This document shows positions 9,268 to 27,210 of a stretch of DNA of 27,512 nucleotides, piece after piece; position 1 is the first letter of the stretch, and each line of letters starts with the position of its first letter. The stretch comes from Candidatus Methanomethylophilaceae archaeon. GTDB taxonomy: Archaea; Thermoplasmatota; Thermoplasmata; Methanomassiliicoccales; Methanomethylophilaceae. A program made the translations under genes and the position numbers. The notes under the pieces were generated by a model, which was given only the letters and a program-made list of their open reading frames with translations, was not told the DNA's origin and ran no database searches. The stretch spans positions 1 to 27,512 of the forward strand of contig JBMNQN010000013.1 of the NCBI GenBank assembly GCA_050944155.1, in the 5' to 3' direction.

Positions 9268-9290
9268 ATGCGCTCATCTCGATGGAACGT

Positions 9291-12363: not shown

Positions 12364-12365
12364 GA

Positions 12366-13367
12366 TTATCCCTTCCACGCGGAAACGCCTCTGCCGTCGA
12401 ACATAAAGTCGGTAACGGCGGCCCCGCATTTCGTCAGTTCCTGAGATACTTTGAATTTTTTATCGTAATCGCATATGAAAAACATGAAGCCTCCTCCGCC
12501 CGCACCGGAGACTTTGCCTCCTACGGCACCGGCGGAAATCGCCGCATTGTACAGCTTATCTATCTTAGGATTCGTTATTTTGTCGGAAAACTGTTTTTTG
12601 TACTGCCAACCCAAATCCAGAAGTCTTCCGGTTTCGTCCAAATCGCCTTTTTCCATGGCAGTTGCCATTTTTTCGGCTATTTCCTTAGTCTTGTCCAAAG
12701 CTTCTTCGTTGTCCCCTTTTCTGAAAGATTTGACCTGGGACTCGATGATATTGGAAGAATCTCTGGTGTTTCCCGTATAACATAAAACGGACCTGCACTG
12801 CAGTTCGTCGATTGTCCTTTCGCTTATCCTGATACGGTTGACGTCCACCCCGTCCCGTCTGAATCTCATAAGATTGAATCCTCCGAACACGGCCGCATAT
12901 TGGTCCTGTCTTCCGCCTTTCAGACCTATGTCTTCTCTTTCCAGAACGTAAGCGAGTTCGGACATTTCGTGGCCGGTGAGCTTCTGATCCATCCATTCCG
13001 CTACGGCGGCTATCGCCGATACTATAACGGTAGAAGAACCCCCCAACCCCGATCCGGGCGGAGCATCGGACTGAAGCAGCATTTTGAACCCTTCTTTGAT
13101 TTCGAAATGGTTGGTTACCGCTTTTACGAGGTCCATATTTCCGTCCAAAGGCAGCGGTCCGCCGTCCAGCGGAGCTTCGAATTTTCCGTAATTCGTGGAC
13201 TCAATGGACATTACATTGGAATCGTTGGGCGTTATCGTACAGTAAGCATATTTGGAAATGGTCGTGTTGAAAACAGAACCGCCTTTTTCCGACGCATACG
13301 GGTCTACGTCTGTACCTCCTCCTGCCATGCCTATTCTGAGCGGGGCTCTCGCCCTTATGTATTTCAT
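12366..13367 (-). CDS. hddA: GHMP kinase, D-glycero-alpha-D-manno-heptose-7-phosphate kinase-like
   Basis: RAPLRIGMAGGGTD, PPGSGLGGSS, GGRQDQYAA, GKVSGAGGGG. Adjacent to gmhA/gmhB. Confidence 0.85.
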   Translation of the reverse strand: MKYIRARAPLRIGMAGGGTDVDPYASEKGGSVFNTTISKYAYCTITPNDSNVMSIESTNYGKFEAPLDGGPLPLDGNMDLVKAVTNHFEIKEGFKMLLQSDAPPGSGLGGSSTVIVSAIAAVAEWMDQKLTGHEMSELAYVLEREDIGLKGGRQDQYAAVFGGFNLMRFRRDGVDVNRIRISERTIDELQCRSVLCYTGNTRDSSNIIESQVKSFRKGDNEEALDKTKEIAEKMATAMEKGDLDETGRLLDLGWQYKKQFSDKITNPKIDKLYNAAISAGAVGGKVSGAGGGGFMFFICDYDKKFKVSQELTKCGAAVTDFMFDGRGVSAWKG

Positions 13368-14389
13368 CTTTTTACCCCGTTGTCAACAATCACGGAACCG
13401 CTTTTCACAACGGTACCGTCTCCCAAAACGGAATTCCGGATTTCGGAACCGCTTTCCACCGTACATCCTTCTCCGATTATACTGTCCGATACAACGGAAG
13501 AATCGATAATACTTTTTTGCATAACCAGAGAGTTTTTCAGTCTGCTGGACGACACCCTGCAGTCCTTCAGTACTATCGAACTTTCGGAAACGGAATCCGT
13601 TATAACCGAAGAACCACCCAGATAAAACGGTCCGGTTATTTCCGTTCTTTCTGCATTCTTAAACTCCGTATCGATGTGTTTTGCAACATCCTGATTCGCT
13701 TTCAGAAGATCCGACGGACGACCTACATCCCGCCACAGACCTTTCAGCCTGTAGCCCTGCACCTTAACGCCTTCTTTAACAATCATCGGAAGCAAATCTT
13801 TCGAAAAATCGTACGGAACCGTGTCTATTCTGCCGAGAATTTCCTTCTGAACGACGTAAACTCCCGCGTTTATCAGATTGGAAAACACTTCCTCGGGTTT
13901 CGGCTTTTCTTTGAATTCGGATATCCGTCCGTCTTTTTCCATACGGACGATGCCGAATTCGCAGGGGTTTTCTATTTCCGTCAAAGCCACCGTTACCGTC
14001 GCTCCCGATACGAAATGTGTCTCTATCTCCTCTTTCACCGAAATATCGGCAAAAACATCCCCGTTCGCCGCCACAAATGTCTCATCCAAACGGTCGGCGA
14101 CGTTTTTGATTGCACCTCCGGTTCCCAGCAGGGTGTCTTCATAGGAATAGGAAATTTCGATTCCGAGATCGGAACCGTCCCCTATGGCTTCCGTAAGCAG
14201 TTCCGATTTGTATCCGCACGCCAAAATGACCTCTTCTATGCCTGCAGAAACCATGGATTCTATGAGGTACATCAGACACGGTTTGTCCAAAACCGAAAGT
14301 ATAGGTTTCGGTTTATTTTCGGTCAGAGGTCTGAGCCTTGTGCCCTTGCCCCCTACCATTATGACTGCCTGTCTGACTTCCGCTGACAT
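13364..14389 (-). CDS. NDP-sugar pyrophosphorylase (mannose-1-P guanylyltransferase/HddC-like) with C-terminal left-handed beta-helix
   Basis: GGKGTRLRPLT-x2-KPKP, LGTGGAI, NGD, FKEKP, INAGVYV, WRDVG. Hexapeptide-like repeats at the C-terminus. Confidence 0.88.
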   Translation of the reverse strand: MSAEVRQAVIMVGGKGTRLRPLTENKPKPILSVLDKPCLMYLIESMVSAGIEEVILACGYKSELLTEAIGDGSDLGIEISYSYEDTLLGTGGAIKNVADRLDETFVAANGDVFADISVKEEIETHFVSGATVTVALTEIENPCEFGIVRMEKDGRISEFKEKPKPEEVFSNLINAGVYVVQKEILGRIDTVPYDFSKDLLPMIVKEGVKVQGYRLKGLWRDVGRPSDLLKANQDVAKHIDTEFKNAERTEITGPFYLGGSSVITDSVSESSIVLKDCRVSSSRLKNSLVMQKSIIDSSVVSDSIIGEGCTVESGSEIRNSVLGDGTVVKSGSVIVDNGVKR

Positions 14390-14421
14390 TATGGGACCGT
14401 GATGAACGTGACGTATATTAA

Positions 14422-15291
14422 TCAGACGCGAACCGCCTTAACTACGTTGGTTCCGATGGGAACATTCAGAGAATCCGCTACCGGAACGCACTTCGCGCGG
14501 AGCATGAAAACAACCGGAGACACGAGTTTTCTTTCCGACAGAGACTCGTAATTGGCCATTCCTTTGGCGATAACTGCGCATGCTCCGTTCAGCGCATTTT
14601 CCGAATCTTCGGGAAGAACACCCGGAATGCCCACGAAGAAACCTCCCGTATCCGTGACCGAATCCAATTCTTTATCCAGACCGATGCGCGCAGCGTCTTC
14701 CCGCGTTACGTCGTTGAGAACGGGTTTTCCGCGGACTATGCCCGTCACTTTCTTTCCGGTTTTCTTAAGCTCCCGTATAAGCAGTATATCCATCTGGCTC
14801 TCTCCGCAGTTGTCGAAAATGTAAACTATATCTCCGTCCTCTTTCAGAAGTTCCCTCAGAATATCGGTATCGTCGTATCCGATGCCCTGCGTGAGAAGAT
14901 TTTCGAACACAGACGAAAATTCTTCCGGACTGTCTATCGCCGTTCCGGAACCGAAATCCATTATGTTTCCCGCAATCGCCGCCGAAATTGCCGCTCTCAG
15001 TCTGTCTTCCGAATTTTCGATGAATTTCTCGGCCTCCGGCAGAAGTTTTTCCGCGGCCGCGTCGGACCTTATTTTAAGAGCCAGATAGGGATCTTCCGTC
15101 CCCATGGCACGGTAGGCGCTTCCGTGCACCGCCGAGGCAACTTCGGCGGAAATCCTGCCTTCGGCAAATTCTTTCGATAACGTCTCCGCAGCCGCACGCA
15201 CGGCTGCGAACTCCGTTCCGTTATCCGCGAGTTTTGCCTGGAACGATACACGTTTCAGAAAACAGGAAGCGCATTCGGGCCTGATTTTCAT
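14422..15291 (-). CDS. DUF89/ARMT1-like damage-control metal-dependent phosphatase
   Basis: MKIRPECASC, AIAGNIMDFG, DNCGE, NDVT, KGMANYESL, AKC. Start chosen at ATG 15291. Confidence 0.88.
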   Translation of the reverse strand: MKIRPECASCFLKRVSFQAKLADNGTEFAAVRAAAETLSKEFAEGRISAEVASAVHGSAYRAMGTEDPYLALKIRSDAAAEKLLPEAEKFIENSEDRLRAAISAAIAGNIMDFGSGTAIDSPEEFSSVFENLLTQGIGYDDTDILRELLKEDGDIVYIFDNCGESQMDILLIRELKKTGKKVTGIVRGKPVLNDVTREDAARIGLDKELDSVTDTGGFFVGIPGVLPEDSENALNGACAVIAKGMANYESLSERKLVSPVVFMLRAKCVPVADSLNVPIGTNVVKAVRV

Positions 15292-15346
15292 GATGTACCA
15301 TGAGCGGGCACGTAAATACCGTTTTTGCATCCGCGCGATAGTACTC

Positions 15347-15836: not shown

Positions 15837-16916
15837 TTATTTTTCTGCCGAATCATAGACGGCGAAAAGCGATTCCGCATAATTTTCGGAAAACGACGCC
15901 GAATGTTTTATTCCTCTTTCTGTTACGCAATTCAGTTTTTCTCTGTCTTCCAGAAGTCCGACCGCCTTGGCCGCCATGTCTTCGGCATCTTTGCACAGAA
16001 CGGTTTCCCGCAGTGTTTCGGAAGGTATTTCCGCCCCTTCGAGACAGAACACGGGGGTGCCGCATGCCTGGGACTCCAGTATCGGAGCGCCGAATCCTTC
16101 GAAGAGGGAAGTGTTGAAACAGAGAGACATCCGGTTGTACAGATCGCACAGTTCTTCTTCGGACAGATTGCTTACGAATCCGACGGAATCGGATATACCC
16201 AGCTCTTCCGCCAATGCATTCAGTTTTTCCCGTTTCGGTCCCGTGCCGCATACGACAAACCGCCAGTCTCCGTAACCGGCGTACTTTTTCATTTCTGCAA
16301 AAGCTTTCATCGCCGTTTCGGGATTCTTTCTGTCAATCAGCGAACCCACGAATCCTACGCATTTTTCTTTCTGCGCGCCGGTTCTGCGGAATACCGGTTT
16401 TGTTTTATGGAGTATCACCGTAATTTTTTCTTCCGGAATTCCCAATTTTTCGACCATGTCCTTCTTGGTGGCAGGAGATATCGCTATGAAACGGTCGGCG
16501 AATATTTTTGCGGTCAATACCGATAATTTCCACAGAAGCGTCCAGGACTTTGTTTCGAATTCCCCGTCTCTTATGACATGATGCAGGGTGACGATTTTTC
16601 TTCCGCGGAAAAACGGAAGCAGCAGAGAACAGTGTTCGGCTGCGGCATGCATAACGTCCGCGTCTCCGGATTTCAGTATTCTGACCGCCGATCTGCCGAG
16701 GCCGTCTACCGTAATTTCCTTCAGAGTTCTGCCTCTGCTGAGATCGAGATATACGGGCTCGCATTCCCGGCCGTTTTCTTCCAAAACCGATTTCACGGTA
16801 TCGGCATAGCTTCCGATGCCGCTTTTATTGTTCTCCGTCTCTTCCTGGGTCCTCAGAAGCAGAACTTTCATGGGCTTCGGATCTCCGCTGCGGCGGCCGA
16901 TGCGTTTTCCTCCCAT
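15837..16916 (-). CDS. Glycosyltransferase family 4
   Basis: GSLIDRKN and EGFGAPILE (E-x7-E). GGAGG upstream of ATG 16916; alternative start 16871. Confidence 0.88.
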   Translation of the reverse strand: MGGKRIGRRSGDPKPMKVLLLRTQEETENNKSGIGSYADTVKSVLEENGRECEPVYLDLSRGRTLKEITVDGLGRSAVRILKSGDADVMHAAAEHCSLLLPFFRGRKIVTLHHVIRDGEFETKSWTLLWKLSVLTAKIFADRFIAISPATKKDMVEKLGIPEEKITVILHKTKPVFRRTGAQKEKCVGFVGSLIDRKNPETAMKAFAEMKKYAGYGDWRFVVCGTGPKREKLNALAEELGISDSVGFVSNLSEEELCDLYNRMSLCFNTSLFEGFGAPILESQACGTPVFCLEGAEIPSETLRETVLCKDAEDMAAKAVGLLEDREKLNCVTERGIKHSASFSENYAESLFAVYDSAEK

Positions 16917-16919
16917 TTA

Positions 16920-18182
16920 TCAGACCTCCGTTTTTACGGTTCTGAATTTATACAGCGGAATAAGAACGACACCCAGAGAAATAAGCAGTCCGAACTGACT
17001 GTAAACGGCAGTCAGGCTGTATACTGCCCCGTCCATTCCGTATGCCGGTATGGCATACAGAAATACGGGAACACTGACAATCATCGCTATTATCGAAAGT
17101 ATCGCCGCGGCACGTCCCTGTTCTTTTGTCATCAGAACAGTTATGCCGCACATTCCCACGCTGTACAGCGTGATTCCGGCCAGAAGCATACAGAAGTAAT
17201 GAACGTAAGGCACAATCTGCTCCCCGTACAGCCATCTGAACGCATATTCGGCACCGATTGCTCCCGCCGCAACGCATAAGGCCCCGAATCCGAGAATAAG
17301 CCCCGCGGTCTTCGCATAATCTCTGCGGAGCGATTTCATGTCTCCCGCCCTGGAAATATCCGAAAAATGTATTATGAACGGAACAAAAACTCCGGTCACA
17401 ATCGTAGGAACGATGATGGTCGGTGCAGAAAGAGTGCTGAATATTCCGACAGTTTCGTCTCCGCCGTAAATCTGAAGAATAAGTTTCGGAAGCGCGGTAA
17501 TCACTATCGGAGCGACAACCGCCAGAAGAAGCGGAACGCCCAGACGTATCAGCGACTTGACGGCGCGCGGATCCGCCCTGTGCACGGAAATACTGTCTCC
17601 GACGTATTTTTTGTAACCGGCGATGACCGAAAGCAGAAACAGTCCTCCGCCGAAGACTGCCATTACCGCCACCGAAAGTACGAGATTCTCCGTCAGATAA
17701 TAGACAATCAGGAACGAAACAAGGCTTTCTATTCCCTCTGCAATCGTACATTTTCCCGCATAATCCAGATGGTCTTTTATCTGCAGCGCTGCCGTGTAAA
17801 GATACGCGAAATGAAGCAGATTGCGGTACACCATGTACATGATGATAACCAGATTCTGTTTCGGAGAATATCCCATAAAAAGCACGACGGGAATACAAAG
17901 GGCGAAACTGAACGCTATGGTGATGATTCTTGCGACCCTGTATTCGTTTTCCGAATAATTGACGTGCTGATCGGAAATCTGATACTGGTTGAGAGAAAAC
18001 GTTGCAAAAATGTTGATGATCGAACAGATCGAAAGAGCTACGGCAAATATTCCCGCTTCCGAAAAATCGGTCATTCTGGGAATCAGCATTATTATCAGCC
18101 ATTGGCAGAACAGAGAAACTATGCTGCCTGCCGTGTTGTACATCACGTGTTTGGACTGTTTTCTGCTGTAGCTCCATTTCAT
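16920..18182 (-). CDS. Wzx-like oligosaccharide flippase
   Basis: About 420 aa multi-pass protein with a YNTAGSIVSLFCQW...EAGIF N-terminal flippase pattern. Start uncertain (18182, 18209 or 18218). Confidence 0.82.
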   Translation of the reverse strand: MKWSYSRKQSKHVMYNTAGSIVSLFCQWLIIMLIPRMTDFSEAGIFAVALSICSIINIFATFSLNQYQISDQHVNYSENEYRVARIITIAFSFALCIPVVLFMGYSPKQNLVIIMYMVYRNLLHFAYLYTAALQIKDHLDYAGKCTIAEGIESLVSFLIVYYLTENLVLSVAVMAVFGGGLFLLSVIAGYKKYVGDSISVHRADPRAVKSLIRLGVPLLLAVVAPIVITALPKLILQIYGGDETVGIFSTLSAPTIIVPTIVTGVFVPFIIHFSDISRAGDMKSLRRDYAKTAGLILGFGALCVAAGAIGAEYAFRWLYGEQIVPYVHYFCMLLAGITLYSVGMCGITVLMTKEQGRAAAILSIIAMIVSVPVFLYAIPAYGMDGAVYSLTAVYSQFGLLISLGVVLIPLYKFRTVKTEV

Positions 18183-18281
18183 TCTGCACACTGACCGCTG
18201 TTCCGCCATAAAACACACGGCCGTAATAAATTATTGCGGTGTGTATCGGATCAGACTCCCGATTCGGGCCGCACGGTTCTG

Positions 18282-18408
18282 TTCTGTGTGCTTATTTCAG
18301 GGCCGGACCGATTTTTGCCGAATATTTTCGAAAATCCGTACGTAAAAATACAGAAAAAAACAAAAGGAGCCGGGCAGAAATCGAAATGATTCCGTGTACT
18401 TATTTCAG
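18282..18408. repeat. Imperfect 19-nt direct repeat in the divergent intergenic region
   Basis: ttctgtgtgcttatttcag (18282-18300) and ttccgtgtacttatttcag (18390-18408): 17/19 identical, 108 nt apart. Confidence 0.6.
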
Positions 18409-18550
18409 AATCGGCTTTTTCGGACAGCATAAAGGATCAGACCGGAGACGGCAGAAACCGAGGAAACGGCCTAAATCAAATGCGGCCGCCTGGCCCGTAC
18501 TCGATTATACCGTTTATAATTTGTAAGACAGAGCTCGTTTTCTCAAAAAC

Positions 18551-18558
18551 GTTATAAT
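18551..18558 (+). promoter_or_regulatory. Putative BRE/TATA element for the aldolase gene
   Basis: A-run (aaaaac) followed by GTTATAAT, 26 nt upstream of ATG 18585. Confidence 0.45.
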
Positions 18559-18584
18559 CGCAAAATACATGCGTATACCCGGAT

Positions 18585-20183
18585 ATGCCCGGAAAAATTA
18601 TGCTGCTGGATTGCACGCTGAGAGACGGAGGGTATCTCAACGATTGGAAATTCGGCAACGGTACCATCACCTGCATATTCGACCGTCTCAACGAATCAGG
18701 CGTAGACATCATCGAGATCGGATTCCTTGACGAAAGACGGGAAAGAGACCCGGACAGGAGCATACAGCCCGATACCGAGGGCTTTTCCGAAGTTTACAAA
18801 AATATTCTCGGAAAAAAATCCATGGTTGTGGCTATGATAGATTACGGAACCTGCGGTTCCGATAAACTGCAGCCGAAATCGGAAACTTTCATCGACGGAA
18901 TAAGAGTCATTTTCAAAAAAGAAAACAGCCGGAAGGCCATAGAATTCGGAAAGGAAGTCATGAAAAAAGGCTATAAACTTTTTCTGAACATGATTTCCAT
19001 CACATCGTACAACGAAGAGGAAATGATTGAATTCGCCGAAGAGGTGAACAAAATCAAACCTTTTGCCGTAACGCTGGTGGATACATACGGCCTGATGCAC
19101 AAAGAACAGATGGAGTTCTATTTCGGATTGCTGGACAGACACCTGGACAGATCGATTTCAATAGGCTACCATTCCCACAACAATTTCCAGCTGGCATATT
19201 CGAATACCATCGATATGCTCAGACTGAAAACCGAAAGGAATCTCACAGTCGACGGAACGCTTTACGGAATGGGCAAGAGTGCCGGAAACGCTCCCTTAGA
19301 ACTCCTTTCCATGCATCTTAACGAAAATTACGGCAAGTCATACGACATCGACCAGATACTGGAAGCGATCGATGCCAACATACTGCCGATATACGAAAAA
19401 GGGTACTGGGGATACAGTTTTCAGTTCTATATTTCGGCAATGCAGGACTGCCATCCCAATTACGTAAACCTGCTTATGAAAAAGCGCACTCTTTCCGTGA
19501 AGGATATGAATGCCATTCTGAGAAAAATAAAACCGGAACTCAGACTCAGATACAACCAACAGCACATCGAAGAGCTTTATATGGAATATATGCTGGATAA
19601 TGTTGATGATTCGGCATGCGTGGAATCTTTGAAAAAGGAACTGGGCGGAAAAGATCTGCTGCTCATAGGCCCGGGAAAATCCTCGGTTTCCGAAAAAGAT
19701 AAAATAGCGGCATACCGCCGCAGCAGACATCCGATAACGATTTCCGTAAATTTCATTCCTGAACCGTCGGACGTAGACTACGTGTTCTTAAGCAATTCCA
19801 AACGCTACAGTCTTATGACACCGCGCATAATTGAGGAAAAACCCAAGATCATAGCCACATCGAACGTTACGCCCCTGAGGGGAAAATTCGACTACACGCT
19901 CAACTACGCGGATCTCATATCCGACTCCGACGAAATTTGGGATAACGCGTTGGTAATTCTCCTGAATTTTCTGAGAAAAATCGGTGTGAACAACATATCT
20001 CTCGCAGGTTTCGACGGATTCAGAGAAAAAACGGATATGAACTACATCGACGGAAGTTTCGATCTTTCAAAGAATTACGACTATCTTTCGGCCGTGAATA
20101 CACTCCTTACAAAAAAGCTGAAAGAATACCGTAAAGACATGAAAATAGAATTTCTGACCGAATCGCTTTACGAAAAAGAGTAA
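18585..20183 (+). CDS. DRE-TIM metallolyase (4-hydroxy-2-oxovalerate aldolase/HMGL-like) fused to a C-terminal Rossmann-like domain
   Basis: LLDCTLRDGGY, DTYG, HSHNN, GMGKSAGN in the N-terminal ~330 aa. C-terminal LLIGPGKS...ISVNF...LAGFDGF. Confidence 0.8.
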   Translation: MPGKIMLLDCTLRDGGYLNDWKFGNGTITCIFDRLNESGVDIIEIGFLDERRERDPDRSIQPDTEGFSEVYKNILGKKSMVVAMIDYGTCGSDKLQPKSETFIDGIRVIFKKENSRKAIEFGKEVMKKGYKLFLNMISITSYNEEEMIEFAEEVNKIKPFAVTLVDTYGLMHKEQMEFYFGLLDRHLDRSISIGYHSHNNFQLAYSNTIDMLRLKTERNLTVDGTLYGMGKSAGNAPLELLSMHLNENYGKSYDIDQILEAIDANILPIYEKGYWGYSFQFYISAMQDCHPNYVNLLMKKRTLSVKDMNAILRKIKPELRLRYNQQHIEELYMEYMLDNVDDSACVESLKKELGGKDLLLIGPGKSSVSEKDKIAAYRRSRHPITISVNFIPEPSDVDYVFLSNSKRYSLMTPRIIEEKPKIIATSNVTPLRGKFDYTLNYADLISDSDEIWDNALVILLNFLRKIGVNNISLAGFDGFREKTDMNYIDGSFDLSKNYDYLSAVNTLLTKKLKEYRKDMKIEFLTESLYEKE

Positions 20184-20211
20184 AAATCCGAATTGAACCG
20201 CATACCCGGCT

Positions 20212-20232
20212 CCTGCAGCACAGGAATGCAGG
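20212..20232. terminator. Possible hairpin between convergent genes
   Basis: cctgca-N9-tgcagg inverted repeat in the gap between the aldolase stop and the restored DHQS-like stop. Confidence 0.2.
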
Positions 20233-20257
20233 CGGAATCCGCTTACGGAAAAACGAA

Positions 20258-20398
20258 TTATCGGTTTATAAGATATGACGCCACTGTTTCCAGCGCGTTC
20301 TCTATTTCGGAATCCTTAACATCGGTATATTTGGAAATCTCCGTATCCGACAGAAGAATGCAGTTGTGAGTTCCGGTGTATTTTTTGTCGCGCTTCAT
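20258..20398 (-). other. Out-of-frame C-terminal segment of the DHQS-family gene (frameshift; possible pseudogene or sequence error)
   Basis: The -1 frame reads MKRDKKYTGTHNCILLSDTEISKYTDVKDSEIENALETVASYLINR* and contains the DHQS C-terminal DKK motif. The junction is an A6 run (T6 at 20398-20403 on +). Confidence 0.8.
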
Positions 20399-21315
20399 TT
20401 TTTGATGAATCCGCCGGGTTCGAAAAATTCCTTTTTCAAAGATTCGGTATCGATTATTTTTATCAGAACTTCGGCAATGCCGTCCGAATATTCCTGCGAA
20501 AGAATCCCTCTGGACACGGAAACCGAATTCGCCATAAGAATGCCTGCCGACACCGCCTGTCCGTGGGGAACCGCGTATCCGGATGCGGATTCCAGAGCAT
20601 GTCCGAACGTATGGCCGTAATTCAGGAGATTCCTGATTCCTCTGTCGAATTCGTCCTCTTCAATCAGAATTTTTTTGTAAGAAAGCGTATTCCGGATTTC
20701 TGCCGTAAGAGCAGTACGGTCTCCGGCCAGAATACCGTCCAGAACGGATGCGAACTCTTCGAATGCCGGTCTTCCTCTCATTATCGCAATTTTGGCAATC
20801 TCTCCGAGCCCGCTGCGGAATTCTCTGGCGGATAGTGTATCCAGGAAAGCGGACGATACGATAATTTTGCTCGGCGGATAGAAAGTTCCGAAAATGTTCT
20901 TGTAGCCCCCATAGTTAATCGACGACTTGCTTCCTATACAGCTGTCGGTCTGCGACAGCAGAGTTGTCGGTACGAAATACCATCTTATGCCTCTGTATAG
21001 TATCGTGGAAACAAAGCAGCAGACGTCCTGCACTATGCCTCCGCCTACAGAAATCAGAACCGTATTCCTTTTGGATTCCATGGGAAACATTTTCTCCGCA
21101 ATCTTCAGCGCCGTACCGACGGTTTTGTTTTCCTCGGCTGCATCGAGAATAAAATGGCTGCCGTCCAGCAGACTGCCGAGTTTATCAGCATATTTTTCGG
21201 CTATGTTACGGTCTGCCACAGTAAACCTGTTGTCAGCCTTTCCTAAATCCTGCAGGAATTCGAGGGAATCGGTAAACGATACGGAATACTCCCCCGCATA
21301 GGATTTGATTTTCAT
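20395..21315 (-). CDS. 3-dehydroquinate synthase (AroB)-family sugar-phosphate cyclase, truncated by frameshift
   Basis: GGGIVQD, VPTTLLSQTDSCIGSKSSIN, KNIFGTFYPP, GLGEIAK, RNLLNYGHTFGHALE, HGQAV. 306 aa as read, 352 aa if the frame is restored. Confidence 0.85.
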   Translation of the reverse strand: MKIKSYAGEYSVSFTDSLEFLQDLGKADNRFTVADRNIAEKYADKLGSLLDGSHFILDAAEENKTVGTALKIAEKMFPMESKRNTVLISVGGGIVQDVCCFVSTILYRGIRWYFVPTTLLSQTDSCIGSKSSINYGGYKNIFGTFYPPSKIIVSSAFLDTLSAREFRSGLGEIAKIAIMRGRPAFEEFASVLDGILAGDRTALTAEIRNTLSYKKILIEEDEFDRGIRNLLNYGHTFGHALESASGYAVPHGQAVSAGILMANSVSVSRGILSQEYSDGIAEVLIKIIDTESLKKEFFEPGGFIKK

Positions 21316-21974
21316 TGTATAGTATATCCTCCGTCGGCTACGATATTCTGCCCGGTGATGTATGTGTTGTCATAGCTGCCGAGAAACAGAATTATACGGG
21401 CGATTTCTTTAACGTCGGCCATTCTTCCCAGCGGGATGTTTTCTTTGATTGCAGCTATTTCTTCTTCGGTGTTGTTCCTATAGGTCATCTCGGTTGCCGT
21501 AAACCCGGGAGATACCGTGTTTACCAAAATTCCGTAAGGAGCGAGTTCGATGGCAAACGTCTCGGTAAGTCCGTGCAGACCGCGTTTTGTTGCCGAGTAA
21601 ATGCCTCTTCCGTGTTTGGATACGACACTCAGTATCGAACCGACGTTGACCACCCTGCCCTGTCTGCGGGATTTCATTCCTTCCGAGAACCCCTGAATTA
21701 TGCGCAGCGGAGAAAGAAGATTCACCGATACTGTTTCTTCCATATCGCTCTCGGAAATTTCTCCCAGATGCCTTATCGGGTTTATGCCGGCGTTATTTAC
21801 TATCGAGTCGAAAACGGCTGTTTTGTTCTCTTTCACGAAATTCATCACAGAATCATAAGAAGACAGATCCAATTCGGACCTTCCGGGCGCAGTAACGTCG
21901 TATCCATTTTCGGTGAATGCCCCGCAGACGGCCCTGCCTATGCCGCGGCTCCCCCCGGTAACTAAAACTCTCAT
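21312..21974 (-). CDS. Classical short-chain dehydrogenase/reductase (FabG-like)
   Basis: TGGSRGIG, NNAG, YSATK catalytic YxxxK, VSPG, DGG. ATGA overlap with the DHQS-like gene. Confidence 0.9.
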   Translation of the reverse strand: MRVLVTGGSRGIGRAVCGAFTENGYDVTAPGRSELDLSSYDSVMNFVKENKTAVFDSIVNNAGINPIRHLGEISESDMEETVSVNLLSPLRIIQGFSEGMKSRRQGRVVNVGSILSVVSKHGRGIYSATKRGLHGLTETFAIELAPYGILVNTVSPGFTATEMTYRNNTEEEIAAIKENIPLGRMADVKEIARIILFLGSYDNTYITGQNIVADGGYTIQ

Positions 21975-22090: not shown

Positions 22091-22990
22091 TCACGGCATT
22101 CTGGACACGGTACGTGCGATTCCTTCTTTGAATCCGTATTTCGGAACGAACCCCGTATCTTCAGTGAGTTCGCTTATGTCCGCACATAGGAACATCGCCT
22201 GATGGGGGTAGTACTCTTTAGCTCCGAATTTTATTTCGGCTTTCGGATTCACGGCATCCCTTATGTCGCTGACGAAATCTTTCATGGGACGGCATTTCCC
22301 GCTCCCCACAGGATAAATCTTCCCGTTTTTTCCGTACCTGCCTATAGCCAGCAGAGCGGCGGCGGCATCTTCCGAATAAATGTAATCCCATATCTGCCCG
22401 CATTCGGTGAGTTCCGGTACTTCTCCGGCAGATATCGTTCTGATGAGGTACATCACGAGTGTGTGTTCCGCATCCTTTTCGCCGTAAACGCTCAGAATTC
22501 TTGCCCAGCAAAATCTCATACCCAGACTGGCGCACATAAGTCCCGAAAGCTTCCCTGCCGCATATTTTGCGATTCCGTATCCGCTTTCGGGATTGGCCGG
22601 CGTATCTCCTTTGAGTCTGACGCCTGCCGGTCCGTATTCCGCCTGAGAACCCGCTCCCACGAAAACAGACGCTCCCCAGCTGTGTGCCAGGGCAACGGCA
22701 TCGAGCGTGTATCTTATGTTTTTTTCCTGAACGTAAACATCGTCTCTTCCTGATACGGATGTTTTCTCCCATCCGAGATGGAAAAACATATCGCATTTTT
22801 CCTTTCCTTCCAGCTCTTTCAGTTCCGAAATCCCGCATTCGATTATTTTCAGTCCGGTGGAATCCGGAAGATTCCCTCTTCTGGGAGAATCCGGACGTAT
22901 TACGGCAATTACTTCGTATCCGTTTTCAAGTGCCAGCTCCGCCAGGGAAGAACCTATCATACCCGTTGCGCCGGTGATTGCAATCTTCAT
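22091..22990 (-). CDS. NAD(P)-dependent epimerase/reductase (extended SDR; CDP-abequose/paratose synthase- or YerF-like)
   Basis: GATGMIG, GSQAEYG, YGIAK, WDYIY. Coupled to the ThDP enzyme gene. Confidence 0.85.
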   Translation of the reverse strand: MKIAITGATGMIGSSLAELALENGYEVIAVIRPDSPRRGNLPDSTGLKIIECGISELKELEGKEKCDMFFHLGWEKTSVSGRDDVYVQEKNIRYTLDAVALAHSWGASVFVGAGSQAEYGPAGVRLKGDTPANPESGYGIAKYAAGKLSGLMCASLGMRFCWARILSVYGEKDAEHTLVMYLIRTISAGEVPELTECGQIWDYIYSEDAAAALLAIGRYGKNGKIYPVGSGKCRPMKDFVSDIRDAVNPKAEIKFGAKEYYPHQAMFLCADISELTEDTGFVPKYGFKEGIARTVSRMP

Positions 22991-24801
22991 TTTTCCGGAT
23001 TTCCTGTGTCGATATACATGTTGCTTTCAAGCTCTTCTCTGGACAGAAACGGAGACATATCCTCGAGCGGCGGCGAATAAAGCTTTCCGTCGGGCAGTTT
23101 TTTGGTTGCCGATTTGGGTTCGAATATCTGTTCCTTAGTAACGAAAACCTCGCAGATGAGGTATCCCTCTTTCGAGAGAATTCCGTCGAGTTTGTTCATT
23201 TCGCCGTTGCTCTTTATCGAGTAATAAGGATAGCCGTATGCATATGCCAGCTTACTCAGATCCGGAAATCCCAAATCTCCGCTTTCTTCCCCTATGCCGC
23301 AGAAATTTTTATTGAAAAGATTGGTTTGGGTCAGTCTTATGGAATGGTATCCGCCGTTGTTTATGACAAACAGTTTTATCGGAAGTCTGTTGGTAACCAC
23401 CGTCTGGAGTTCCTGTATGTTCATCTGAAGGCTTCCGTCTCCGGCGATGCAGATTGTATCGGAACCGGACGCAACGCACACTCCTATGGCGGCCGGAAGG
23501 TCGTATCCCATACTGGCTATTGCGGAATTCGTGATAAATCTCTGTCCTTCTTTAACGGTGAATGCGTGGCTTCCCACGGCGCAGGCCGTCCCGTTCCCGG
23601 TTACCACCATCTTGTTTTCCGGAAGTCTGGCACTCAGCTCTTTATAAAAACAGTAAGGGTTGGCGTAACCTTCGGGAACACAGTGTCTTTCCTGAACCAC
23701 CGGGTACTTCTTTTTCCAGATTTCGCACTGTTTGAGCCATTCGGTGTTTTTGAAAACCGTTTTGCCGCCGAGCAGCGAATCCATTGTTTCCAGCAAATCT
23801 TTAGCATCGGCATGAATCGGCATGTCGACATGAAGAGACGGTTTCTTAAGCTCGTTCTCGTCGGCGTCTTCCATTATTACGAACGCTTCTCTCGCCCAGG
23901 TTTTCCAATTGAACCCTACCTGTCTGAGACTCAGCCTGCTTCCCACCGAAAACACTAAATCGCTGTTCTGAACCGCAAAATTTCCGGCACGGTTGCCGAG
24001 GCTGCCCCCTCTTCCCGCATACAGAGGATCGCTGTCGGGAATGAGATCGATGCTGTTCCAGCAGGTTACTACGGGAATGTTTAGTTTTCTGATTACTTTC
24101 CGGAAAACTCCGTAAGCTCCCGCCAGTCTTATTCCGTTTCCTGCGTAAAATACCGGACGCTCCGAAGACCGTATTTTTTCGATTATCTTTTCGACGATCT
24201 TTTTATCAGCCTTAGGAGGGATATCGTTTTCTTCTTTGCCGGGATCGAATTCTTCCAAATCTTCAGTGTCTATATATGCGCCCTGTACGTCCAAAGGGAT
24301 GTCCAGCCAACAGGGCCCCGGACGTCCGTGGGATGCCAGAAACAGCGCCTTGTCCAGACAGTATTTGATGCGTTTCGGGTCGGTGACCATTTCGCTGTAT
24401 TTAGTCATGCAGCCGATTGCTTTCGTTATGTCGAATTCCTGATCGCCCATAGACCTCAGCGGAAGTCCCGTGCTTCTTGCGGTAGTGTCGTACCTGACCT
24501 GCCCGGAAATTACAATCATCGGTATCGAATCGAGCCATCCGCCGACCACTCCCGTGATTGCGTTGGTTCCTCCGGGGCCCGTGGTAACGCAGAGCAGCGC
24601 CATTCTGTTATTAACCCTGGCATAACTTTCTGCGGCGATTGCCGATGCCTGTTCGTGATGATTGTACAGACATTTCAGACGCGGATGGTGTCCGAACGAA
24701 TCGTTTAGATGCATGGCGCCTCCGCCGACCACCGTAAAAACGTCCTTTATTCCGTAATCCGCAAGACGATCCGCAATAAAATCGGAAACTTTGACTTTCA
24801 T
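22987..24801 (-). CDS. ThDP-dependent acetolactate-synthase-like enzyme (YerE-like carboligase)
   Basis: HHEQ catalytic Glu, TTGPGGTN, GRPGP, GDGSLQMNIQEL...NNGGY ThDP motif. Located in the CDP-sugar operon. Confidence 0.85.
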   Translation of the reverse strand: MKVKVSDFIADRLADYGIKDVFTVVGGGAMHLNDSFGHHPRLKCLYNHHEQASAIAAESYARVNNRMALLCVTTGPGGTNAITGVVGGWLDSIPMIVISGQVRYDTTARSTGLPLRSMGDQEFDITKAIGCMTKYSEMVTDPKRIKYCLDKALFLASHGRPGPCWLDIPLDVQGAYIDTEDLEEFDPGKEENDIPPKADKKIVEKIIEKIRSSERPVFYAGNGIRLAGAYGVFRKVIRKLNIPVVTCWNSIDLIPDSDPLYAGRGGSLGNRAGNFAVQNSDLVFSVGSRLSLRQVGFNWKTWAREAFVIMEDADENELKKPSLHVDMPIHADAKDLLETMDSLLGGKTVFKNTEWLKQCEIWKKKYPVVQERHCVPEGYANPYCFYKELSARLPENKMVVTGNGTACAVGSHAFTVKEGQRFITNSAIASMGYDLPAAIGVCVASGSDTICIAGDGSLQMNIQELQTVVTNRLPIKLFVINNGGYHSIRLTQTNLFNKNFCGIGEESGDLGFPDLSKLAYAYGYPYYSIKSNGEMNKLDGILSKEGYLICEVFVTKEQIFEPKSATKKLPDGKLYSPPLEDMSPFLSREELESNMYIDTGNPEK

Positions 24802-26139
24802 TTATTCCCTCAGAGCCTCTTTGATTGTCCTTGCCATGTAATCTATCATTGCATCCGTCATTCCGGGATAAACCCCTACCCAGAAAGTATCGTTCATGAT
24901 TCCGTCAGTAACGGAAAGGTCTCCCACGGTGCGGTATCCTCTGCCTTCCTTTCTCATGACGTCGAAACAGGGATGGCGGATGATGTTTCCGGCAAACAGC
25001 ATTCTTGTCTGTACACCTTTCGATTCCACATATCTTACAACCTTTCTCCTGTCGGCTCCGGATTTGCATGTGATAAGGAATCCGAACCAGCTGGGATCGC
25101 TTCCCGGAAGAGCTTCTGGAAGAATTATTCTATCCTGTACATCCGAAAGCTTCTCTTTCAGAAGAGAAAAGTTATGTTTTCTTTTCTCGACGAAACCAGG
25201 CATTTTCTCGATTTGGGCACATCCGATTGCCGCCTGCATGTCCGTAGCTTTCAGATTGTAACCGAAGTGTGAATAAACATACTTGTGATCGTAACCTGCG
25301 GGCAGTTCTCCGTACTGACCGTCAAATCTGTGACCGCACATATTGTCTTTTCCGGAAGGACAGGAACAGTCCCGTCCCCAATCCCTTAACGAGCGTATAA
25401 TCCGAGAAAGTTCGTGGCTGTTGGTATAGACAGCCCCGCCTTCTCCGGTAGTCATGTGGTGGGGAGGATAAAAACTCGAAGTGCCTATGTCCCCGACTGT
25501 ACCCGTAAATTCGGAGGTTCCGCGGTAGGTGTATTTAGAACCGAGTGCGTCGCAGTTGTCTTCCACGAGCCAAAGATTGTTTTTGTCACAGAATTTTTTC
25601 ACAGCCTCAATGTCGAAGGGATTTCCGAGAGTATGTGCCAGCATTACCGCTTTTGTCTTTTCCGACAGCGCCTCTTCCAATTGGGAAACGTCCGCGTTGT
25701 ACTGCGGAACCGTCATATCCACGAACACCGGAACCGCTCCATATTGAATGCACGGCGTCACCGTCGTAGGAAATCCGCATGCGACCGTTATCACTTCGTC
25801 TCCCGGACGTACGGCTCTTTCTCCGAGACGGGGGGAAGTCAGTGCCATAAACGCCAGAAGATTGGCGGAAGACCCAGAATTGACGAAACAGCACGAAGAC
25901 ACCCCCAGATAGTTTTTCAGAGATTCTTCGAACTTTTCAGTATATCTTCCGGAGGTTAGCCAGAATTCCAAAGACGAATCTGCCAGATTGACCATTTCTT
26001 CGCGGTCGTAAACCCTAGATGCGTAGGATATGCGGTCTCCCTCCGAATACGGTTTTTTAGTGTGATATTTGTCGCAATATTCCGCAACCGATGCCAAAAT
26101 TTCTTCTCTGGCCTGTTTTTCTGTTTTTCCATCAAACAT
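24802..26139 (-). CDS. rfbH: CDP-4-keto-6-deoxy-D-glucose 3-dehydrase (E1/DdhC)
   Basis: NSGSSANL, EDNCDALG, SFYPPHHMTTGEGG (His replacing the PLP Lys) and the [2Fe-2S] motif CSCPSGKDNMC. Confidence 0.93.
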   Translation of the reverse strand: MFDGKTEKQAREEILASVAEYCDKYHTKKPYSEGDRISYASRVYDREEMVNLADSSLEFWLTSGRYTEKFEESLKNYLGVSSCCFVNSGSSANLLAFMALTSPRLGERAVRPGDEVITVACGFPTTVTPCIQYGAVPVFVDMTVPQYNADVSQLEEALSEKTKAVMLAHTLGNPFDIEAVKKFCDKNNLWLVEDNCDALGSKYTYRGTSEFTGTVGDIGTSSFYPPHHMTTGEGGAVYTNSHELSRIIRSLRDWGRDCSCPSGKDNMCGHRFDGQYGELPAGYDHKYVYSHFGYNLKATDMQAAIGCAQIEKMPGFVEKRKHNFSLLKEKLSDVQDRIILPEALPGSDPSWFGFLITCKSGADRRKVVRYVESKGVQTRMLFAGNIIRHPCFDVMRKEGRGYRTVGDLSVTDGIMNDTFWVGVYPGMTDAMIDYMARTIKEALRE

Positions 26140-27210
26140 TCAATCACTTTCCAGATAGTCCCGTATCTGTGCATCCATGCATTCCGTTACGTTCCCGCCG
26201 GATGACCATACCTTGAACCATTCCACTGTTTTCATTACCGCCGTATCAACATTCCAGTGCGGCGAAAAACCCAGCTTTTCCTTTATCAGTCCTGCATTGA
26301 GTTTCAGGTAACCCGCCTCGTGGCGTTCTCCGGTTTCGAATACGGGAGGCTTCGTACCGCCCCAGTATCTGCGGAAAATTTCGACCAATTCGCCTGTGGT
26401 AACGCAGTCTTCTTTGCGCGGCCCCACGTTGTAGTATCCCGCTTTTTCCGGATTGCTTTCCTGTTCGGCGGCAATCATAAGATACGCCGCAAGAGACTCC
26501 AATACATGCTGATAGGGTCTTACGGAACCGGGATTGCGCATGACGACCGGGGCGTCCGCCAAAGCCGCTCTTACGCAGTCGGGAATGATTCTGTTATCGG
26601 AAAAATCCCCTCCGCCGATTACGTTCCCCGCTCTTGCAGTCGAAATGCAACATCTCTCTCCGAAGAAACTGTTTCTGTAACTGTGCGTAACCAATTCCGA
26701 GCAGCTTTTGGAGTTTGAATACGGATCGTATCCGTCTAATGGATCGGTTTCTTTAAACTCCCCTCCGGTTTCGTCGTTTCTGTACACTTTGTCGGTGGTG
26801 ACATTCAGAAAGGATATTACGGAATCCGTATTTCTGACGCATTCCAGAATATTTACGGTTCCCATAACGTTTGTTTCGTATGTTTCGCGGGGATGTTCGT
26901 ATCCGTAGAGAACCAGGGGCTGCGCGGCCAGATGAAACACGAATTCTGGTTTTGCTTCATCTACAAAAGACTGAAGTTTACCGTAGTCTCTTATGTCTCC
27001 CGTCTCCGAGTGCATTCCTTCCTCTGTTTCCGCGATGGTGAAAAGATTGGGATCCGTCGGAGGTTCGAGCGAATACCCGTATACGTCCGCTCCGAAATTC
27101 TTAAGAATATGACAGAGCCAGGACCCTTTGAATCCTGTATGTCCTGTTATCAGGACTCTTCTGTTTCTGAATACGCCCGGAAGGAATTTACCAAGTTTTC
27201 CAGCGGGCAT
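26140..27210 (-). CDS. rfbG: CDP-glucose 4,6-dehydratase
   Basis: VLITGHTGFKGSWL, HLAAQPLV, TTDKVY, DPYSNSK, RAGNVIGGGD, RPYQHVLE. Start at ATG 27210, overlapping the end of rfbF. Confidence 0.93.
   Translation of the reverse strand: MPAGKLGKFLPGVFRNRRVLITGHTGFKGSWLCHILKNFGADVYGYSLEPPTDPNLFTIAETEEGMHSETGDIRDYGKLQSFVDEAKPEFVFHLAAQPLVLYGYEHPRETYETNVMGTVNILECVRNTDSVISFLNVTTDKVYRNDETGGEFKETDPLDGYDPYSNSKSCSELVTHSYRNSFFGERCCISTARAGNVIGGGDFSDNRIIPDCVRAALADAPVVMRNPGSVRPYQHVLESLAAYLMIAAEQESNPEKAGYYNVGPRKEDCVTTGELVEIFRRYWGGTKPPVFETGERHEAGYLKLNAGLIKEKLGFSPHWNVDTAVMKTVEWFKVWSSGGNVTECMDAQIRDYLESD

Follow-up and report, generated by a model that had tools for sequence, protein, structure and literature searches.

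What do an aldolase, an AroB-like enzyme, and an SDR do together in a glycan island of an archaeon with a small genome? In the 27,512-nucleotide stretch of DNA that we analyzed (the window), the aldolase gene lies at 18585–20183 on the plus strand, and the AroB-like gene (20258–21315) and the SDR gene (21312–21974) lie on the minus strand, as the original prediction had it. The aldolase and cyclase genes are convergent, their stops 75 nt apart if the interrupted cyclase frame is continued to its end, and the SDR stop overlaps the cyclase start. Pfam and NCBIfam profiles bear out the flanks that had been proposed, namely a CDP-glucose 4,6-dehydratase, RfbH, and, in the downstream context of the island, a Wzx-type flippase (16920–18218, minus strand; Polysacc_synt) and a GT4 glycosyltransferase (15837–16916, minus strand; Glycos_transf_1). 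The window holds no shikimate gene, also as proposed. GDP-heptose genes are present in it, at a distance of 7–9 kb. The view of the trio as a stand-alone module has to be given up since the conserved cluster that contains it also encodes RfbG, RfbH, a YerE/JanthE-like ThDP enzyme, and a reductase; the trio is part of a larger surface-sugar cluster common to many bacteria.

The other genes of this cluster are also on the minus strand. A partial glucose-1-phosphate cytidylyltransferase-like gene (RfbF), whose 3′ part occupies 27188–27511 and which extends past the window end, shows 70% identity over 94 aa to an NTP-transferase gene that precedes CDP-glucose dehydratase in a genome of the same family (L137). 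It is followed by a CDP-glucose 4,6-dehydratase gene of the RfbG/DdhB type (26140–27354), which matches TIGR02622 over residues 61–400 with 415.6 bits (cut-off 278); since the listed ORF has ∼60 surplus N-terminal residues, its true start is probably later. Next come RfbH/E1, a CDP-6-deoxy-4-keto-glucose 3-dehydrase (24802–26139; NF011936 RfbH, 711.8 bits, cut-off 423), and a YerE/JanthE-like ThDP-dependent carboligase with three TPP domains (22987–24801). The best solved relative of the latter is 8rph (449.7 bits, E = 1.4e-133), which is JanthE according to PMC12188165, ahead of 5ahk (deposited as acetolactate synthase II) at 231 bits at most, and its homologs are conserved adjoining the cyclase in 18 of 84 related loci. 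An extended-SDR reductase (22091–22990; Pfam Epimerase, E = 2.9e-35) follows the ThDP gene in the window and in L137, L138, L139, and L141, and directly follows the cyclase in L054, L059, and L061; its position makes it a candidate YerF/ErwF-like side-chain ketoreductase. The SDR of the trio is a classical ketoreductase of 220 aa (adh_short_C2, E = 1.8e-42), in which TGGSRGIG and YSATK are present.

The AroB-like gene is read as an ORF of 306 aa (20395–21315, minus strand), holding the first 304 codons and a premature stop, which matches DHQ_synthase (E = 1.1e-32) and DHQS_C (E = 4.1e-29), the second match ending at profile position 120 of 144. Its best-scoring family is TIGR04425, [quoted passage not shown] a hypothetical equivalog that carries neither substrate nor product assignment. 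The truncated window protein aligns to profile positions 1–291 of 348 with 375.5 bits (cut-off 400), an intact relative with 83% identity (P0002) reaches 394.8 bits, slightly under the cut-off, and relatives from both neighborhood types described below pass it at 418–482 bits. The aroB profile TIGR01357 gives 239.7 bits, under its cut-off of 305, and in a phylogenetic tree the window protein falls within the TIGR04425 clade, which is separate from AroB (SH-aLRT 98).

The NAD and metal motifs of the cyclase are retained, as originally noted; GGGIVQD, PTTLLSQTDS, E172/H235/H251, and LLNYGHTFGHALE are all present. Conservation of 90% or more in 34 AroB sequences defines 43 positions, of which 38 carry the AroB residue in 90% or more of 82 family members, including R108, D124, K130, N140, E172, K175, K214, R228, N232, H235, H239, H251, and DKK. 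These presumably correspond to the residues of Aspergillus nidulans DHQS that bind DAHP, NAD, and Zn, and we take R228 and K214 (window numbering) to be the DAHP-carboxylate binders. A DAHP-type active site is kept, which agrees with the original prediction. By sequence, DHQS is the closest solved relative (E = 1.3e-44), ahead of DOIS (5.5e-29), the EEVS ValA (3.4e-28), and 5tpr (3.1e-21), which we take to be a DDGS, though it is deposited as 3-dehydroquinate synthase.

The aldolase (532 aa) combines two domains. Residues 5–256 match Pfam HMGL-like (PF00682, E = 4e-20) and represent a DRE-TIM catalytic domain of the pyruvate-aldolase type (18585–19376, plus strand), in which TLRDG and HSHNN are nearly invariant. 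The best NCBIfam matches are 4-hydroxy-2-oxovalerate aldolases, at 75–81 bits and far under their cut-offs, and the best solved relative is 3dxi, a "putative aldolase" (E = 1.9e-22), followed by 4-hydroxy-2-oxovalerate aldolases. The C-terminal domain (19377–20183, plus strand) has no Pfam match and is found in every full-length relative (525–545 aa). Its AF2 model (mean pLDDT 86.6) has an MptE/Maf/sialyltransferase-like fold, with Foldseek matches to Methanocaldococcus jannaschii MptE-type HPPK (8sd5 and 8sbu), Maf (5mu5), CstII (1ro7), and sialyltransferases at probabilities of 0.9–1.0, yet with TM scores of only 0.33–0.38.

How conserved is this arrangement? We surveyed the neighborhoods of 84 related cyclase loci, 29 of which are of the CDP-sugar type (type A). 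Of the 68 loci whose upstream flank extends for 700 nt or more, 59 have an SDR gene as the immediate upstream neighbor of the cyclase, in the same orientation; in seven of the remaining nine, the SDR is in the same cluster, two to three genes upstream past the ThDP gene. A pyruvate aldolase is present in 25 of the 29 type A loci, belonging either to the HMGL type (9 loci) or to the unrelated HpcH/HpaI type (16 loci), and the predicted co-occurrence of the trio in glycan loci is thus upheld. The HpcH gene abuts the SDR–cyclase pair in L096 and L090, and the ThDP gene intervenes in L094. In three bacterial metagenome loci (L054, L059, and L061), genes for the NTP-transferase, RfbG, RfbH, aldolase, SDR, ThDP enzyme, cyclase, and reductase are all on one strand, with aldolases of 531–534 aa that are 45–49% identical to that of the window; L053 has the same genes, more loosely spread and minus the cyclase-adjacent reductase. 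Type B loci encode a KdsB-like cytidylyltransferase (NF003952, 203.8–207.8 bits; cut-off 193), and each neighborhood type has an enzyme that requires a 2-keto acid, the ThDP enzyme in type A and the cytidylyltransferase in type B. Also in type B, a GmhA-like isomerase precedes the SDR–cyclase pair (24 of the 84 loci), and inositol-dehydrogenase-like GFO enzymes lie alongside it. In related archaea, the aldolase accompanies the ThDP enzyme in the absence of the cyclase: four of the five aldolase-bearing genomes checked lack the cyclase and keep the aldolase and the ThDP enzyme. Two of these relatives (G303 and G335) have SDR homologs without the cyclase, and in G303 a GmhA-like isomerase precedes an SDR. 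Since the aldolase is about as similar to its orthologs in cyclase-less G303, G329, and G335 (65–68% identity) as to that in cyclase-bearing G314 (67%), its substrate need not be phosphorylated.

Our best explanation, which we put forward tentatively, is that the window genes may serve one pathway to a CDP-activated 3,6-dideoxyhexose with a long C-4 side chain, an acyl-branched sugar of the erwiniose/caryophyllose kind, with the AroB-like enzyme being non-cyclizing. In this scheme, in which all substrates, the sequence of reactions, and the absence of cyclization are inferred, RfbF, RfbG, and RfbH would produce CDP-4-keto-3,6-dideoxyglucose. The aldolase would form a DAHP-like 4-hydroxy-2-oxo acid from pyruvate and an aldehyde, for which a phosphorylated aldose (erythrose 4-phosphate, for example) is the likeliest candidate. 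Since no PF00793 DAHP synthase was found in the host genome (92% complete), such an acid would have to derive from the aldolase. On this acid, the AroB-like enzyme would carry out a transient oxidation and a phosphate elimination of the DHQS type, and the SDR encoded directly upstream would reduce the newly formed ketone, so that the two would convert the terminal CH2-O-phosphate to CH3 and retain the alpha-keto acid. The ThDP enzyme would then decarboxylate this acid and join the remainder to C-4 of the keto sugar, and the extended-SDR reductase would reduce the carbonyl of the side chain. The placement of two unrelated pyruvate aldolases beside the SDR–cyclase pair would make little sense if the genes were not functionally linked. 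To our knowledge, a non-cyclizing outcome is without precedent in the DHQS family. In DHQS, the later steps proceed largely without enzymatic help, so that a DAHP-type substrate might cyclize regardless, and the complete retention of DHQS residues suits a true cyclase equally well. Also against our explanation are an aldolase substrate that need not be phosphorylated, the SDR homologs without a cyclase, and the isomerase of type B loci, which may indicate a heptose phosphate substrate. We further count against it that no E3-type reductase (PF00175) was found in the host genome, that the published caryophyllose and ropiose clusters are described with no AroB-like gene (PMC9306805), and that the C-terminal domain of the aldolase is unaccounted for. 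The predicted side chain would be C6 and end in a methyl, as in caryophyllose, a known sugar with a C6 methyl-terminated side chain (PMC9306805).

The original prediction had a different end product, in which the AroB-like enzyme cyclizes the DAHP-like aldolase product, the SDR reduces the ring ketone, and a quinate-like unit decorates the glycan, the ThDP branch being a parallel route that uses pyruvate or some other donor. We consider this unlikely. The full DHQS residue set, DHQS being nearest among solved relatives, the GFO enzymes beside the pair in type B, and the recurrence of the trio, which in L090 is flanked by 10 kb free of ThDP genes in each direction, would all suit a carbocycle. 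However, it fits the context poorly because cyclization would destroy the keto acid required by the ThDP enzyme, and the product could not serve the KdsB-like cytidylyltransferase as an ulosonic acid either; type A loci have no conserved ligase, acyltransferase, or other enzyme to activate and attach a free cyclitol acid, and four of the five related archaea with aldolase and ThDP enzyme dispense with the cyclase. It is quite improbable, too, that the SDR–cyclase pair is independent of these two enzymes and acts on a heptose or sedoheptulose phosphate, as an SH7P-like cyclase or otherwise, toward a separate glycan component. The GmhA-like isomerases, the GDP-heptose genes in the window, and the occurrence of the pair in two different cluster types speak for such independence, but the presumed DAHP-carboxylate binders R228 and K214 are invariant, solved SH7P cyclases are less similar in sequence than DHQS, and two unrelated aldolases adjoin the pair in type A loci. 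As for an AroB with the usual housekeeping role in making aromatic amino acids, we give it hardly any credence. The gene is the sole PF01761 match in the host genome, but an archaeal DHQS-II is encoded near EPSP synthase (C18:270–1262, E = 5.5e-100), none of 35 same-family genomes sampled has an AroB-type gene, and the window gene is broken and within a glycan operon, all of which contradicts this reading, as do the profile scores. Clustering with housekeeping AroB and being the sole source of dehydroquinate are contradicted by the tree and DHQS-II, and the cyclase is non-housekeeping, as had been proposed.

Is the AroB-like step of our preferred dideoxy-sugar pathway still operating in this host? 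The cyclase frame is lost at a run of six A (20398–20403, minus strand), where seven would keep it (one A is missing), and the last 46 residues (MKRDKKYTG...INR) and the stop are encoded in the other frame (20258–20398, minus strand, within the stop-to-stop frame 20258–20659). In P0002, intact at 351 aa, FIGKMKRDKK spans the position corresponding to the break, and the remnant aligns with the C termini of 29 relatives, where the DKK motif hardly varies. The frameshift is seen in more than one assembly. Contigs from the DNA runs X2 (depth 273) and X9 (depth 614), of two studies, either of which may be the window's own source, match 19900–21400 with zero mismatches or gaps, the identical truncated protein is recorded from 12 contigs, and the same stretch is found in many runs of 16 studies. 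RNA-library contigs cover 20610–21400, and none crosses the A6 site. Since this one-base frameshift removes a conserved C-terminal piece, the AroB-like step is probably absent in this archaeon. That it is bypassed or reversible, through programmed −1 frameshifting, transcriptional slippage, or phase variation, with cyclase still made in part of the population, seems very unlikely to us. The spread of the truncated gene over contigs and studies, its RNA coverage, and the A6 homopolymer immediately ahead of the stop, where a −1 shift regains the frame, would favor a bypass, but the RNA 3′ of the run is no more stably folded than shuffled sequence (z = −1.39), C AAA AAA departs from the X XXY YYZ pattern of canonical slippery sites, the contigs have A6 only (though contigs lose rare variants), and the lack of the cyclase in four of five related aldolase-bearing genomes is consistent with gene decay.

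Compared with AroB (EC 4.2.3.4), the window cyclase has the same fold and keeps both the NAD and metal motifs and most conserved positions but differs in the substrate-lysine region (DSCIGSKSSIN in its family versus D-A/S-S-x-G-G-K-x-G-x-N), in its score and clade, and in having a glycan operon instead of shikimate neighbors; its host produces dehydroquinate with DHQS-II. DOIS, EEVS/ValA, EVS, and DDGS belong to the same superfamily and have also been recruited outside the shikimate pathway, but the window cyclase is less similar to them than to DHQS, and the position that we take to be that of the special Glu of DOIS is L or M in its family. While these secondary-metabolism cyclases are found in antibiotic or sunscreen clusters, the window family is found in polysaccharide loci.

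Among branched-sugar systems, the published scheme leads from an aldolase to a keto acid, a YerE-like enzyme, and a reductase, with enzyme assays for ErwE, MMAR_2332, and MyGE (PMC9306805, Steitz et al. 2022). It covers erwiniose in Pectobacterium atrosepticum (ErwE/ErwF/ErwI/ErwJ), caryophyllose in Mycobacterium marinum (MMAR_2331 aldolase and MMAR_2332 ThDP enzyme), and gastriose (MyGE/MygI/MygF) (PMC9306805). The window cluster resembles these in its CDP-4-keto-3,6-dideoxyglucose genes, its YerE-like ThDP carboligase with an adjoining NAD(P)H reductase, and a pyruvate aldolase supplying a gamma-hydroxy alpha-keto acid donor. It differs in its archaeal host and in missing an ErwJ-type acetaldehyde dehydrogenase, and its aldolase is only distant kin of BphI/ErwI (75–81 bits versus cut-offs of 229–286), with an extra C-terminal domain of ∼270 aa. 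It also adds an SDR and an AroB-like enzyme, neither of which is mentioned in PMC9306805, where the caryophyllose and ropiose cluster descriptions name no AroB-like gene and the supporting information does not contain "dehydroquinate"; the AroB-like enzyme is an uncharacterized add-on to a likely branched-sugar cluster. With yersiniose A of Yersinia pseudotuberculosis (YerE/YerF), the window cluster shares the CDP-4-keto-3,6-dideoxyglucose acceptor chemistry and the pair of ThDP enzyme and reductase. YerE takes pyruvate and requires no aldolase, whereas the aldolase, SDR, and AroB-like genes are co-conserved in the window cluster, which implies a longer, tailored donor.

Most of the window, which is the whole of contig C13 in a 1.04-Mb genome of 27 contigs that is 92% complete, is a surface-glycan island containing GT4, GT2, and GT87-like transferases and two Wzx-type flippases. 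At its right end, closely spaced or overlapping genes run on the minus strand from a cytidylyltransferase through an AroB-like gene. This run begins at the window edge with a partial glucose-1-phosphate cytidylyltransferase (RfbF, 27188-27511), 70% identical to its counterpart in a relative, and continues with a CDP-glucose 4,6-dehydratase (RfbG; TIGR02622, 415.6 bits) and RfbH/E1 (711.8 bits), both above cut-off, a three-domain ThDP enzyme, an extended-SDR "epimerase" family protein, a classical SDR (21312-21974), and the AroB-like gene itself (20395-21315). An HMGL-like aldolase is encoded on the opposite, plus strand (18585-20183), convergent with the AroB-like gene. The aldolase, the AroB-like gene, and the SDR, on which the original prediction of a pathway to a quinate-like or other carbocyclic glycan unit was built, were all found in the glycan locus as it had described them.

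Elsewhere in the island, a GDP-heptose set of the GDP-D-glycero-alpha-D-manno-heptose type (11332-15330, minus strand) comprises a GmhA-GmhB fusion, HddA, and a nucleotidyltransferase with a hexapeptide tail. It is followed by an ARMT1/DUF89 "damage-control" phosphatase, and the same phosphatase adjoins the aldolase in L141, a locus from a related genome. Two GT87/PIG-U-like polytopic membrane glycosyltransferases (1130-2503, minus strand, and 7044-8339, plus strand), taken with the two flippases, suggest that more than one glycan is assembled in this 27-kb island. Three ORFs belong to no Pfam family: 282-1133 (minus strand, 283 aa), 3738-4322 (plus strand, 194 aa), and 9282-9836 (plus strand, 184 aa). 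For the first two, homologues stand in glycan islands of relatives (L138, L139, L140, and L141).

We determined where the AroB-like protein belongs. Against the aroB equivalog TIGR01357 (cut-off 305), it scores 239.7 bits and P0002, its intact 83%-identical relative, 251.8 bits. Against TIGR04425, a hypothetical equivalog named by NCBIfam [quoted passage not shown] with a cut-off of 400, the window's truncated copy scores 375.5 bits over profile positions 1-291 of 348, P0002 394.8, a further relative (P0004) 400.9, and the relatives from the two kinds of locus described below 418-482. A quick maximum-likelihood tree of 76 rows, for which 40 of the 116 collected rows were omitted to limit size, separated 58 family rows, the window's included, from 18 archaeal and bacterial AroB with an SH-aLRT of 98. 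Within the family, the window's protein groups with three short metagenome loci (L049-L051). Among 34 AroB sequences, 43 positions reach a conservation of at least 90%; the AroB-like family keeps 38 of them, including all of those that we take to be the NAD, Zn, phosphate, and carboxylate ligands of dehydroquinate synthase (DHQS). Sequence similarity to solved structures from the group of sedoheptulose 7-phosphate (SH7P) cyclases and DOIS (4p53, 2d2x, and 5tpr) is weaker than to DHQS. Kean et al. in 2014 reportedly described a family-specific active-site fingerprint of SH7P cyclases.

For dehydroquinate formation, the genome encodes the archaeal type II enzyme, DHQS-II (PF01959, C18:270-1262, E 5.5e-100), close to EPSP synthase; chorismate synthase is present as well. 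No match to the PF00793 DAHP synthase was found in this 92% complete genome. We rejected a housekeeping AroB role for the window's protein on these two grounds, DHQS-II present and PF00793 DAHP synthase not found, and because its gene is frameshifted. Placed in a clade apart from housekeeping AroB, and with DHQS-II encoded in the same genome, the protein is neither an ordinary AroB nor the sole predicted source of dehydroquinate, and on this point the original prediction holds. AroB-type matches occur in 58 of 301 same-class genomes, the host's included, and in none of 35 same-family or 6 same-genus genomes; the two same-class matches that were scored are both ordinary aroB.

The AroB-like ORF ends after 306 codons, and its last 46 residues lie in another frame, down to 20258, the break being an A6 run at 20398-20403. 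The DKK motif, nearly invariant in relatives, is beyond the frameshift in the window's copy; the intact counterpart, an 83%-identical protein of 351 aa, comes from elsewhere. Since the interval 19900-21400 reads with the same letters in DNA contigs of two runs from two studies (depths 273 and 614), either of which is possibly the source of the window, and since the identical truncated protein is recorded from 12 contigs, the break is real in this lineage and not the mistake of a single assembly. Contigs from RNA libraries span portions of the genes for aldolase, cyclase, and SDR and are uninformative on the frameshift site, because 20104-20609 is uncovered except for an 18-nt fragment. An RNA structure that might stimulate frameshifting is unsupported, the fold downstream of the A-run having a z of -1.39. 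The SDR-cyclase pair is decaying in this genome. Runs from 16 studies, labelled as landfill, sludge, bioreactor, and digester metagenomes, also have contigs that carry the interval 19900-21400 nearly unchanged, and parts of it occur in metatranscriptome libraries.

We then compared the neighborhoods of the family. A metagenome scan returned at least 600 pattern matches, 588 of these 600 encoding a relative of the AroB-like protein, and the best 80 metagenome loci together with four genome loci gave a set of 84 (median length 6.3 kb). A scan of genome contigs with a single protein gave 14 loci, of which 9 are ordinary AroB and 1 is a partial match to the query. Among the best 80 plus four, 68 loci extend 700 nt or more upstream of the cyclase, and in 59 of these an SDR directly precedes it on the same strand; in 7 of the remaining 9, the SDR stands two or three genes before the cyclase within the cluster, on the far side of the ThDP gene. 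The 84 loci comprise 29 that resemble the window in their CDP-sugar genes (type A), 36 with a second neighborhood (type B), and 19 untyped, of which 14 measure less than 3.2 kb. In the tree, the loci of types A and B form separate clades.

Three type A loci (L054, L059, and L061) carry on one strand a cytidylyltransferase, CDP-glucose dehydratase, RfbH, aldolase, SDR, ThDP enzyme, cyclase, and reductase. Their HMGL-type aldolases (531-534 aa) have the same two-domain build as the window's and are 45-49% identical to it. A fourth locus, L053, has the same gene set minus the cyclase-adjacent reductase and is less compact. Overall, a pyruvate aldolase is present in 25 of the 29 type A loci, and it is of HMGL type in 9 and of the unrelated HpcH/HpaI type in 16. 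The HpcH/HpaI aldolase abuts the SDR-cyclase pair in L096 and L090, and in L094 a ThDP gene stands between aldolase and SDR. The recruitment of two unrelated aldolase families to one position provides good evidence for joint action of aldolase, SDR, and cyclase, in keeping with the functional link originally proposed for the three.

Type B loci encode GFO/inositol-dehydrogenase-like enzymes, a GmhA-like isomerase, SDR, cyclase, a 2-hydroxyacid dehydrogenase, a HisC-like aminotransferase, and a KdsB-like cytidylyltransferase, and they lack both the aldolase and the ThDP enzyme. This gene content suggests that their product is a CMP-activated amino deoxy acid sugar. In L079, L083, L088, L068, L007, and about 30 more, the order is GFO-type dehydrogenase, GmhA-like gene, SDR, cyclase, 2-hydroxyacid dehydrogenase, HisC-like gene, second GFO, and KdsB-like gene. 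The setting is bacterial surface-carbohydrate loci, often with TIGR04417 (PFTS) and TIGR04326 proteins.

Within the host's own family, the aldolase occurs in 7 of 60 genomes. It is accompanied by a ThDP enzyme and a reductase in 4 of 6 regions examined (genomes G303, G329, G314, and G173); the stretch from G335 has no ThDP match, and that from G333 shows neither ThDP enzyme nor reductase. Only 1 of 5 aldolase-bearing relatives that were checked has the cyclase (G314, in the order SDR, cyclase, aldolase on one strand). This pattern indicates that the constant partner of the aldolase is the ThDP enzyme and that the SDR-cyclase pair is an accessory, present in some genomes and missing from others. 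Two cyclase-less relatives (G303, L137 at 17829-19186, and G335, L140 at 293-1012) retain an SDR with 54-58% identity to that of the window, a hint that the pair may be lost step by step or exchanged. The SDR of G303 stands between a preceding GmhA-like gene and a following flippase gene.

The aldolase, whose gene is conserved along with that of the ThDP enzyme in both bacteria and archaea, keeps the RDG and HxH motifs in its HMGL-like domain and scores far below the cut-offs for 4-hydroxy-2-oxovalerate aldolase. Its C-terminal domain of about 270 aa (residues about 265-532; 19377-20183, plus strand) has no Pfam match and is conserved in all full-length relatives. An AlphaFold model of this domain (mean pLDDT 86.6) showed Foldseek likenesses to an MptE-type pyrophosphokinase (HPPK) of M. 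jannaschii, Maf, CstII, and sialyltransferases, with probabilities of 0.9-1.0 and TM scores of only 0.33-0.38. These model-based likenesses suggest, as a lead rather than a finding, that the domain may bind nucleotides. Protein atlas matches fall in unnamed clusters only; the atlas also holds stand-alone Bacillota proteins of 285-320 aa with similar features.

A known pathway brings these genes together. For erwiniose, a BphI-like pyruvate aldolase of the cluster forms 4-hydroxy-2-oxopentanoate, which the YerE-like ErwE uses as its donor in place of pyruvate (Steitz et al. 2022, PMC9306805). The same logic has been proposed for caryophyllose (MMAR_2331 aldolase and MMAR_2332 ThDP enzyme) and gastriose (PMC9306805). 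The best solved relative of the window's ThDP enzyme is 8rph (449.7 bits over residues 2-595), identified as the YerE-like enzyme JanthE (PMC12188165). The next match is 5ahk, deposited as acetolactate synthase II, at 231 bits, and other acetolactate synthases score about 200 or less. By sequence, the window's ThDP enzyme is a predicted YerE-like carboligase, and we consider it likely that the cluster as a whole encodes an acyl-branched dideoxyhexose pathway.

How the SDR-cyclase pair might serve such a pathway is suggested by its retained residues, because the kept DHQS ligands point to a DAHP-like 2-keto-3-deoxy acid 7-phosphate as substrate. The pyruvate aldolase would make this acid from erythrose 4-phosphate in a host in which no PF00793 DAHP synthase was found. 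The AroB-like enzyme would then carry out a DHQS-type transient oxidation and phosphate elimination, followed by ketonization, and the tightly linked SDR would reduce the new ketone. The product would be a 3,7-dideoxyheptulosonate-type acid, a C7 donor for a caryophyllose-like C6 side chain ending in methyl. We favor this non-cyclizing course because both locus types hold an enzyme that needs an intact 2-keto acid, the ThDP decarboxylating carboligase in type A and the KdsB-like cytidylyltransferase in type B, and ring closure would destroy that function. Every chemical step is inferred, and we advance the whole chain tentatively, as a reading that could well be right and that we stop a little short of calling probable.

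Several observations weigh against it. Full retention of the DHQS residues would suit a true cyclase equally, and the late steps of DHQS are largely spontaneous. The window's aldolase is no closer to that of the cyclase-bearing relative than to the orthologues of cyclase-less ones, SDR homologues are found without a cyclase, and published cluster descriptions are silent on an AroB-like gene. The GmhA-like gene of type B may indicate heptose phosphates, and an E3-type (PF00175) reductase was not found in the host genome (92% complete), though RfbH/E1 is present. If TIGR04425 enzymes do close the ring, the surface glycans of archaea and of many bacteria would incorporate a quinate-like carbocyclic sugar acid (a carba-ulosonic acid), made in one cluster type from the aldolase-derived DAHP-like acid and handled in the other by the KdsB-like cytidylyltransferase. 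We regard this outcome as unlikely, and as clearly less probable than phosphate removal without ring closure.

Either course would matter. Removal of phosphate without cyclization would add a new type of outcome to the reactions of the dehydroquinate-synthase family, and ring closure would mean glycans bearing a carbocyclic acid not yet described. How long-branched bacterial sugars obtain tailored keto-acid donors, such as methyl-ended ones, is not stated in the published scheme, and the AroB look-alike with its SDR, an uncharacterized and widespread pair in such clusters, is a candidate for the missing supply step. The window also puts a cluster of the predicted acyl-branched type in methanogen-related archaea of digesters and landfills, and archaeal acyl-branched sugars are not known to us from any description. 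Krug et al. in 2024 reportedly surveyed more than 200 YerE-like clusters in silico, and that work may already describe AroB-like genes. Our literature search found no paper linking TIGR04425 or dehydroquinate synthase with caryophyllose or YerE-type branched sugars and none that names the ligand residues of DHQS, and PMC5706390 does not contain the terms "dehydroquinate," "aldolase," or MMAR_2328-2330/2334. The original prediction is partly supported: it was right about the genes, their link has good support, and it missed the published acyl-branched scheme around them, into which the window's aldolase-like, ThDP enzyme, reductase, and CDP-4-keto-3,6-dideoxyglucose genes would fit (PMC9306805). 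Whereas published descriptions of acyl-branched clusters do not mention an AroB-like gene (PMC9306805), the cluster in the window has one.
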